Assembly: GCA_024679065.1 (NCBI GenBank)
Contig: JAGIQG010000013.1
Span: 84,630,001 to 84,694,000, forward strand
Direction of reading: 5' to 3'
Source of the DNA: Sphyrna mokarran
Taxonomy: Eukaryota
DNA: 64,000 nt
The position numbers and the translations under genes were made by a program. Shown one piece after another: positions 17,201-20,200 of the stretch (position 1 is its first letter; each line of letters begins with the position of its first letter). The notes beneath the pieces were generated by a model. That model ran no database searches, was not told the DNA's origin, and saw nothing but the letters and a program-made list of their open reading frames with translations.

Positions 17201-20200
17201 AGGGTAAATCCTGTCCGGCCCAGGGGACTTATCTAACTTCAAACCCTCAAGCATATCTAGCACATTCTCCTTATCTACTTCAATACTTTCCAGTTTGCAA
17301 CCCTGTATCCCAGTGTTCTCCACAACTACATTTACATCTCCCTGCGTGAATACCAAAGAGAAATATTTGTTCATTGCCTCTACAATCTCTTCAGGCTCCA
17401 CGCACAACTTCCCACTGCTGTCTCTGACTGGCCCTAATCTTGCCCTAACCAATCTTCTATTCTTAATATATCTAAAGAAAGCTTTAGGATTCTCCTTGAT
17501 CCTATCAGCCAAAGTCTTCTCGTGTCCCCTTTTAGCTCTCCTCAACTCACTCTTTAGCTCACTCCTGGCTAATCTATAGCTATCCATTGCACTAACTGAG
17601 CTTTCAAGCCTCATCCTGACATAAGCCTCTTTTTTCCTTTTAACCAGCGAATTAACTTTTTTAGTACACCATGGTTCCCTTACTCGACCATTTCCTCCTT
17701 GCCTGACAGGGACATACTTATCAAGGGCTCGCAGTAGCTGCTCCTTGAATAAGCTCCACATTTCAGATGTTCCCAGTCCCTGTAATTTCCTAGTCCAACC
17801 TATGCACCCTAAATCCCTCCTTATGGCCTCATAATTACCATTCCCCCAGCTATAACTACTGCCCCCAGCTTCATGCCTATCCCTATCCATCACTAAGGTG
17901 AACGTAACCGAATTGTGGTCACTATCACCAAAATGTTCACTAACTTCCAAGTCTAACATCTGGTCTGACTCATTGCCCAGCACCAAATCCAATGTAGCCT
18001 CACCTCTAGGTGGCCTATCTACATACTGAGTCAAAAAACCTTCCTGCTCACTTTGTATAAAAACTGACCCCTCTAACGAGCTAGAGCTATAGCTATTCCA
18101 ATCAATATTAGTAAAGTTAAAGTCCCCCATAACAATTACCCTATTACTTTCACTCCTGTCCAGGATCGACTTTGCAATCCTTTCCTCTACCTCTCTCGAA
18201 CTTTTAGGAGGTCTATAAAAGACTCCCAACAGGGTGACCTCTCCTCTCCTTTTTCTAATCTCAGCCCATACTACCTCAACAGACAAGTCCTCATCAAACT
18301 TCTTTTCTGTCACTGTGATACAGTCTTTGACTAATAATGCCACTCCTCCCCCCCTTCTACCTCCTTCTCTACTCCGACTGAAGCATTTGAAGCCCGGAAC
18401 CTGCAACAACCATTCCTGTCCCTGCTCTATCCATGTCTCTGAAATGGCCACAACATCGAAGTTCCAGGTACTGATCCAAGCTGCAAGTTCCTCCACCTTA
18501 TTGCGAATATTTCTTGCATTAAAGTATACGCATTTCAAACCATGCCCTACTCCACCCGTACGCTGCTGTGCTTTACAGTTCTCATCTATGACCCGCCTAT
18601 TCTCGTCCCGCTTAACATCCAAGCTACTCAGGATCCCACCCCCCCCTCTGAATCAGTTTAAACCCCCCTACATAGCCTTTGCAAATTTTCCCCCCAAGAT
18701 ATTGGTTCCCCTCTGGTTCAGGTGTAGACCATCTCTCTTGTAGAGGTCCCACCTACCCCAGAATGAGCCCCAATTGTTCAAGAACCTGAACCCCTCCCTC
18801 CTGCACCATCTCTGCAGCCACGAGTTCAAACATTCCCTCTCTCTGTTCTTCTCTAAACTATCCCGTGGCACAGGCAAGAGTCCAGAGATAACCACTCTGT
18901 CTGTTTTGGCCCTAAGCTTCCATCCCAACTCCATAAATTTCTGTTTAATATCCCCTTCCCTTGTCCTACCTACATCATGTGTCCCTACATGAACTATGAC
19001 TTGGGGCTGACCCCACTCTCCCTTAAGAATCTTGAAAACCCGCTCTGAGACGTCCTGGACCCCGGCCCCTGAGAGGCAACACACAAGCCCTGAGTCCCGT
19101 TTATTACTATTTACTGAGTTTCTGGATTAATAGTGTCGCAATAATATCACTCGGCCATTGCCTCTCCTCGCTATGGTTTAACTGGGGACTTCTTGAGGGG
19201 ATTCTTAGAGATAGGATGTATAGACACTTAGAGCGTTGCGATCTGATTAGGGATACGCAGCATGGCTTTGTTAAGAACAAAGAACAAAACTGCACAGGAA
19301 ACAGGCCCTTCGGCCCAATGAGCCCATGCCACCACCTCGATGTTCCCACCTCTACCCGTGATCCCTGCCTATGTTTATAGATCTAAGGATTAAAAACCAA
19401 ATTTGAGACAATTTAGGGAGAATTTGTTTTGCCAATCAGCCTAAGAGCACGTCTTTGGGATGTGGGAGGAAACCGGAGCACCTGGAGAAAATCCACGCAA
19501 GCACGGGGAGAATGCACAAACTCCCACAGACACAGGCCCAAATCCATGTATCTGCACAGCACAGCGATAGTCACTGAGCTGTCGTGTTGCCCAACAAATG
19601 GTCCAGGTCAAGCGTACACTAACGACGTGAAGCACTAGGATACTCTCAAAAAAAATCTAAGAGCAGCCCTCTCACGACCCATCGCGTGTATGCCCCTTGT
19701 TAGACAACAAGGTGGACCAAAGCACCTGTAGGATAAAAACAAGTACATCAATATCATCATCTATTTACACACTTCCCAGGGACTCCCAAGGCTCATGATC
19801 CCTATTTTAAATCAGTTTTCTCTACCCCTCCATTCCCATTCTGTTCATGTGCCCATCTAAGTATTTCTTAAATAACTCCAGAGTGCCTGCCTCCACCACT
19901 TTACTTGGCAGCACATTCCATACCCCCACCACCCTCTGTGTGAAAAAACTCTCTCTAGCGGAGGTCGTGCCTTACAAATCTGGTAGAATTTTTTGAGGAG
20001 GTGATGAAAACGGTCGATGAAGGGCAAGCCATTGATGTCGTCTATATGGATTTCAGTAAAGCATTTGATAAAGTCCCTCATGGGAGGTTAGTTGAGAAGG
20101 TCAAGGTTCATGGGATACAAGGACAAGTACCTAAATGGATAAGTAACTGCCTTAGTAATAGGAGACAGAGAGTAATAGTGGAAGGGTGTTTCTCTAGCTG

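Follow-up and report, generated by a model that had tools for sequence, protein, structure and literature searches.

The question raised by a 64,000-nucleotide (nt) stretch of the Sphyrna mokarran genome (contig JAGIQG010000013.1, positions 84,630,001 to 84,694,000; hereafter the window) is what a structured segment of about 119 nt, found there in five copies, does for the CR1-type long interspersed nuclear element (LINE) that carries it in its 3′ untranslated region (UTR). The initial annotation had proposed a selected cis-acting RNA outside every known family, and this proposal is now supported by low divergence relative to synonymous sites, by substitutions that keep pairing and by negative Rfam searches. 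We conclude that the element is very probably a selected cis-acting RNA.

The coordinates and strands first given for the five copies were correct, and a covariance model search of the window returned exactly these five:

19600..19718, minus strand: structured RNA element, subfamily s1; fold z −4.16, covariance model match
21188..21300, plus strand: structured RNA element, s1, damaged by an 8-nt deletion in the short hairpin; fold z −1.06
28962..29083, minus strand: structured RNA element, s1, in the LINE copy at 28626-29982; fold z −3.67, covariance model match
34719..34836, minus strand: structured RNA element, s1, in the LINE copy at 34385-35602; fold z −4.52, folding in context
62509..62627, plus strand: structured RNA element, subfamily s2; fold z −3.85, folding in context

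All five begin and end as GGTCC(A/G)...TGGACC and can be aligned over ~450 nt. Four of the five fold with z between −3.67 and −4.52, and none of 200 shuffles was equally stable, while the fold of the damaged copy at 21188-21300 was not significant (25 of 200 shuffles as stable). The predicted shape is a three-way junction composed of a 6-bp closing helix, a 7-bp hairpin stacked on that helix, and an irregular stem of ~38 bp with a conserved 10x10 internal-loop region and a U/G-rich apical loop. The helices named in the initial annotation were recovered in these folds; the GTATATGC strand of copy 62509 is indeed present, yet it is a minority variant within its subfamily. The element folded as its own domain inside 280-300 nt of context in two subfamilies. 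Antisense folding was poorer (z −2.93 and −0.22 in two copies), and was 15-26 kcal/mol weaker than sense folding in all eight subfamily majority sequences.

The host of the element is a single lineage of CR1 LINEs, assigned to the CR1 group by domain content and tail, with RVT_1 and Exo_endo_phos_2 in the second open reading frame (ORF2), an OSK/GDSL-like ORF1 and a microsatellite tail with a stem-loop. Full-length copies measure ~4.65 kb and contain a 5′ UTR with a TATA motif, a 303-aa esterase-like ORF1 and an ORF2 encoding endonuclease and reverse transcriptase (RT). From 5′ to 3′, the ORF2 stop is followed by a variable spacer, an acceptor-like site, 7 nt, the element, a further 7 nt, a segment derived from a short interspersed nuclear element (SINE), and a CR1-type tail. 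A degenerate pattern gave at least 12,093 matches in the genome, a lower bound on copy number, against 0 for a control pattern. Whereas two subfamilies had been counted earlier, at least eight exist, and 193 of 196 near-complete copies fall into these eight; s5 is the oldest by copy divergence (0.085, against 0.017-0.038 in the others). As first noted, the short UTRs of other CR1 families lack the element: none of the 10 other ORF2 ends in the window carries one, and among six non-carrier CR1 clusters it was present in 1 of 66 sampled copies. The 5′ UTR start is seemingly tandem-duplicated in some full-length copies (loci L214, L216, L315). ORF2 sequence precedes the two plus-strand elements of the window:

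19957..21119, plus strand: CR1 ORF2, 5′-truncated (RT end), in the same copy as the element at 21188; stop TAA at 21117-21119
60900..62480, plus strand: CR1 ORF2 of the s2 copy; stop TAA at 62478-62480; 5′ end at or before 60900

The first of these belongs to a pair of s1 copies, at 19273-19959 (minus) and 19957-21622 (plus), that have opposite orientations and abut at their 5′ ends.

Comparison of the subfamilies indicates that the element has been constrained. Between s5 and either s1a or s2a, the element has diverged by 0.092, while four-fold degenerate sites in ORF2 have diverged by 0.32 and 0.36 (p = 8.5e-6 for s5-s1a, p = 5.5e-7 for s5-s2a), and the corresponding values between s1a and s2a are 16% and 37% (p = 0.0003). 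Divergence of the element is comparable to that of ORF2 codon positions 1+2 (0.06-0.10). The earlier claim that substitutions keep pairing held in all seven subfamily comparisons, which share ancestry and amount to about two independent tests: pairing exceeded that obtained when the same substitutions were placed at random on s5 (P 0.0003-0.03), and random placement produced weaker folds than those observed (minimum free energy, P at most 0.007). One U.U mismatch in s5 is repaired in three ways elsewhere, as U-A, U-G and A-U. Among 13 natural copies, 91.6% of cells pair, compared to 31-43% when the structure is slid along the sequence. Covariation in the same 13 copies is present and modest in extent, with two-sided change in 4 of 39 pairs (reached by 9 of 500 shuffles) and a covariation score matched by 1 of 500 shuffles; the count of extra pair types was not significant (52 of 500). 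Most pair changes are one-sided, being exchanges of G-U for Watson-Crick pairs or mismatch repairs, which likewise points to the sense strand.

These comparisons bear on whether the element could be a neutral relic, that is, a piece of captured host transcript (an intron end, an exon or a SINE) that is carried along. The origin is evidently composite, promoter boxes of the SINE are decaying, and close subfamilies show no excess conservation, but a divergence ~3.5-fold below that of synonymous sites over deep splits, the pair-keeping substitutions, and survival of the element while up to ~150 nt of adjacent spacer was lost make this explanation very improbable.

Searches against Rfam 15 found no covariance-model match on the element, either in the window at gathering thresholds or in four subfamily copies at E up to 10. 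A pattern scan of metagenomes gave 6 matches, none fitting the covariance model, and viral contigs gave 0. At least 16 sequencing runs came up with shares of 0.05-0.46, which speaks neither for expression nor for occurrence in further species. We found no prior description of the element in the open literature, a survey that did not cover Repbase, Dfam, subscription papers or supplements, so the LINE family may be catalogued already without comment on the module; the literature on viral splice-site structures likewise yielded no match. Sharks go unmentioned in the available text of one paper on LINE-derived SINE bodies (PMC5786205).

A compact, closed structure that begins with G might suggest a self-cleaving ribozyme or an internal ribosome entry site (IRES), and the GGG loop motif in s1 and s5 presumably resembles one in the hepatitis C virus (HCV) IRES. 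Both possibilities are nevertheless most improbable, in addition to the Rfam result, on several grounds. A hammerhead core (CUGANGA plus GAAA) was not found on the sense strand, and a hepatitis delta virus-like ribozyme was rejected because the element has no conserved pseudoknot pairing and its P1 helix closes the whole element. Cleavage would also leave a spike of 5′ ends, and among 105 copies unselected for upstream sequence, none started within 8 nt of the element, with 5′ truncation at ~1 per kb throughout. The HCV-like GGG loop becomes AGG or AUG in s2, s3 and s4, and in place of the downstream ATG, s5 has ACG and s3 has AAG. Of the functions raised by the initial annotation, self-cleavage finds no support and IRES-driven translation would lack a conserved AUG downstream.

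The long stem could instead be a substrate of double-stranded-RNA proteins, such as Drosha/Dicer acting on a primary microRNA (pri-miRNA)-like hairpin, ADAR or Staufen. The irregular ~38-bp stem, close to the ~35 bp of a pri-miRNA, and its U/G-rich apical loop are of suitable form, and the 3′ strand bears what we take, as a lead only, to be a likeness to a vertebrate early-embryo miRNA class. A pri-miRNA was rejected, as the stem rises from a three-way junction and has no single-stranded flanks at its base, the positions where a seed would fall are changed in s1b and s3 (3′-strand positions 84-89 vary), no Rfam miRNA model matched at E up to 10, and cleavage would destroy the template. We consider this group of explanations quite improbable.

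The region upstream of the element was initially described as not alignable, which does not hold throughout; a pyrimidine tract plus CAG/G (the slash marking the splice-like junction) is conserved there, and this site, resembling a 3′ splice site, had been overlooked. It lies 7 nt before the element in all eight subfamily majority sequences. All eight pass a simple acceptor rule, used rather than a trained scorer, of at least 12 pyrimidines in 16, YAG/G and no upstream AG, and six of the eight have a branch-point-like motif. The linker between AG and element has a fixed length of 7 nt, with no constraint at positions +2 to +4. In contrast, the spacer from the ORF2 stop to the AG ranges from 19 to 167 nt, up to ~150 nt having been lost, such that the element begins 26-174 nt past the stop. 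Four window copies contain the site:

19726..19745, minus strand: acceptor-like tract plus CAG (AG at 19727-19726); ORF2 stop TAA at 19809-19807
29091..29110, minus strand: acceptor-like tract plus CAG; ORF2 stop at 29174-29172
34844..34863, minus strand: acceptor-like tract plus CAG; ORF2 stop at 34926-34924
62482..62501, plus strand: acceptor-like tract plus CAG (AG at 62500-62501); ORF2 stop TAA at 62478-62480

In the copy at 21188 (plus), the tract is deleted and the AG at 21179-21180 is retained. GTTCTAG is a recurrent s1 variant (L191 and five more among the matches listed), and in L191 the tail of another CR1 family is inserted at the acceptor, creating a new TAG before the exon side.

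If the acceptor is truly used, ORF2 would be spliced out from a donor behind ORF1 to give an ORF1-only mRNA, and the structure would tune the ratio of spliced to unspliced RNA. Consistent with this, full-length s2 copies have AGG/GTAAGT ~58 nt past the ORF1 stop and ahead of the ORF2 start, GTAA is retained in s3, s4 and 3 of 6 s1 copies, and every subfamily has its acceptor shortly after the ORF2 stop; the gag subgenomic RNA of Ty1/copia elements provides a precedent (PMC5580714, available text). The donor, however, is strong in s2 only and is weak or lost in s1 and s3, a second candidate donor in the 5′ UTR is absent in s1, and some copies of a family without the module have a similar GTAAG. 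A spliced RNA would still carry the RT tail, and for human L1 the available text of PMC5860796 puts spliced copies at ~2% of full-length insertions, yet no retrocopy joins either candidate donor to the acceptor. Genome junction patterns for the two donors gave 3 matches against 16 for the control and 11 against 10, none of which extends into the element. One locus, L251, was considered as a spliced retrocopy and proved on reading to be a chance match. Splicing of ORF2 seems unlikely.

Copies with altered upstream ends were also surveyed irrespective of donor. The 114 distinct loci, drawn from two junction patterns (124 and 77 matches; 11 of the 77 and part of the 124, among them 24 unlisted ones, left out), comprise 81 unrelated flanks, 28 local variants, 2 inverted joins and 3 internal joins; the patterns bar upstream ends with C (one pattern) or any pyrimidine (the other) at two positions and miss most s3 copies, which makes some junctions invisible. 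Two of the internal joins, L377 (G000:C783:1103522) and L419 (G000:C849:38266057), connect ORF2 to the acceptor AG at a GT and have 5-6 nt of microhomology, while the third, L371, lies off the AG. Spliced retrocopies are therefore absent or number at most 2, both explicable by microhomology, and unspliced copies dominate. Evasion of HUSH by means of the acceptor is disfavoured, given that spliced stuffers with splice sites gave no protection and that splice sites alone are no shield from HUSH, according to the available text of PMC8770142.

Downstream, the initial annotation had bounded conservation at ~119 nt. That boundary did not hold, as conservation continues into a captured SINE-derived segment that had been overlooked, with 3-5 differences in the first 38 nt beyond the element. 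The segment, which we tentatively take to be V-SINE/HE1-like, is present behind every window copy:

19274..19592, minus strand: captured SINE-derived segment, comprising a decayed tRNA-like head, central domain, CR1-type tail stem and TTGTTCT repeats
21308..21621, plus strand: captured SINE-derived segment plus tail
28637..28954, minus strand: captured SINE-derived segment plus tail
34386..34711, minus strand: captured SINE-derived segment plus tail
62635..62948, plus strand: captured SINE-derived segment plus tail

Its head, directly after the element (21308-21350 and equivalents), forms its own hairpin in both contexts folded, and its central domain matches short repeats elsewhere in the window. 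A B-box-like remnant in the tRNA-like head survives in 21 of 29 s5 copies, compared to 1 of 164 classified others. The element is present in 205 of 208 copies with a SINE head, which stands alone in the other 3. Among scored copies, poly(A) has replaced the TTGTTCT-type repeats of the tail in 15 of 25 from s3a (e.g., L121-L150, L248, L260) and in none of 98 from s1, s2, s4 and s5. The small hairpin is shortened in the same lineage, s3, whose element has changed at about the synonymous rate.

This arrangement could reflect a site at which the LINE's own ORF1 and ORF2 proteins bind or package the RNA, formed by the structure and the SINE domain and aiding cis-preference, with the pyrimidine tract as a plain U-rich protein site. 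A sense-strand location ~300 nt from the 3′ end, the near-constant pairing with the SINE head, and the fastest change of the element in s3, the subfamily that switches to poly(A), are in keeping with such a role. It leaves the invariant CAG/G beside free positions +2 to +4 unexplained, and the standard CR1 tail stem-loop is kept; sister families manage on that stem-loop without the element, which also counts against RT recruitment, one of the functions first suggested. We regard this explanation as rather doubtful.

We favour, tentatively, the reading that the element acts as a cis-acting 3′-end processing and export module for unspliced LINE RNA, because a selected sense-strand fold and a retained acceptor-like site occur together, spliced copies are few or absent, and the RNA needs to stay unspliced to propagate. 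Early splicing factors of the U2AF type would bind the pyrimidine tract and AG, defining a terminal exon; use of the AG for splicing would be restrained by the stable helix that follows it; and the long stem, irregular and with a 10x10 internal-loop region, may bind a host export or stability factor, in a manner likened to retroviral transport elements. Recognition of an acceptor is coupled to 3′-end formation and export. A strong acceptor licenses downstream polyadenylation (PMC10901741, available text), and the export element of human L1 spans the end of ORF2 and the first 70 nt of the 3′ UTR (PMC3045867, available text).

Several observations weigh against this reading. The same text reports that human L1 could do without its export element in retrotransposition assays, and sister CR1 families amplify without the module. 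The chance rate of acceptor-like motifs is 1.9 per kb, falling to 0.10 per kb once a branch motif and +1 G are required, and a second such motif lies inside ORF2, so that retention of the site through large deletions counts as evidence while its mere presence does not. For close subfamily pairs, conservation of the element does not exceed that of synonymous sites (p 0.42-1 overall; s2a-s3a, 0.147 against 0.128, p = 0.72; s1a-s1b, p = 0.74), and s3 shortens or loses the small hairpin. The structure was derived from the same sequences as those tested, which inflates the pairing tests. Finally, the downstream SINE head is conserved about equally to the element, which means that the selected unit may exceed 119 nt.

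More broadly, it is possible, though this is a less secure proposal than the favoured reading, that an orphan acceptor, a structured RNA and a disarmed SINE came together in a vertebrate LINE lineage as a single terminal-exon module with a role akin to that of retroviral regulatory elements. The module would either cause an intronless RNA to be treated as spliced mRNA or allow switching between full-length RNA and an mRNA for ORF1 only, through removal of the whole of ORF2 by splicing.

The window has further features of its own. A long fold-back at ~28311-28435 (L002 850-974) has weak miRNA-model matches (E 0.001, far below the gathering score). Degenerate TTAGGG arrays at 39445-39674 and 41435-41617 adjoin N stretches ~300 kb from the contig end. 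Homogeneous tandem arrays are present at 47367-47761 (71 bp), 53117-54389 (33 bp), 54734-57188 (70 bp) and 59289-60029 (71 bp), and the two 71-bp arrays are built on a common unit.

The processing and export of intronless LINE RNA are poorly resolved outside mammalian L1, and this family provides a compact fold beside a conserved acceptor-like site, naturally varied in eight subfamilies, with module-less sister families as controls, as well as an example of a SINE taken up by the UTR of its partner LINE. A functional acceptor would turn more than 12,000 copies into potential gene traps in host introns. The aspect that seems new is a structured cis element of a LINE 3′ UTR that belongs to no Rfam family and has an unusual acceptor and SINE context. 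Among known systems, which are compared here from the available texts of the papers cited, the closest are the NXF1-binding export element of human L1 (Lindtner et al. 2002, per PMC3045867) and retroviral constitutive transport elements, which share a cis-acting RNA, at the border of ORF2 and 3′ UTR in L1, and an unspliced RNA that needs export. The present element belongs to another LINE clade, has a three-way junction, an acceptor-like site and a captured SINE, and is likened to the L1 element by position alone. L1 spliced integrated retrotransposed elements (SpIREs; PMC5860796) are alike in that a LINE conserves splice signals, perhaps not for the sake of splicing, whereas the L1 sites lie in its 5′ UTR and in ORF1 and give rise to spliced copies, and the site here is in the 3′ UTR with at most 2 ambiguous ones. 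In Ty1/copia (PMC5580714), as might be the case here, splicing could give an mRNA for the structural protein only, but those are LTR elements with demonstrated splicing. The 3′-terminal stem-loops of stringent LINE/SINE pairs (PMC3747384) are likewise selected RNA structures in a LINE 3′ UTR; such a stem-loop is present separately at the tail of this family, and the element is larger and ~300 nt upstream of it. The HE1/HER1 SINE-LINE pair, which occurs in sharks and rays (PMC4824008, PMC3747384), resembles the downstream segment in its tRNA-like head, central domain and CR1-type tail, but here the SINE is embedded in the UTR of an autonomous LINE, has decayed promoter boxes and hardly ever stands alone.
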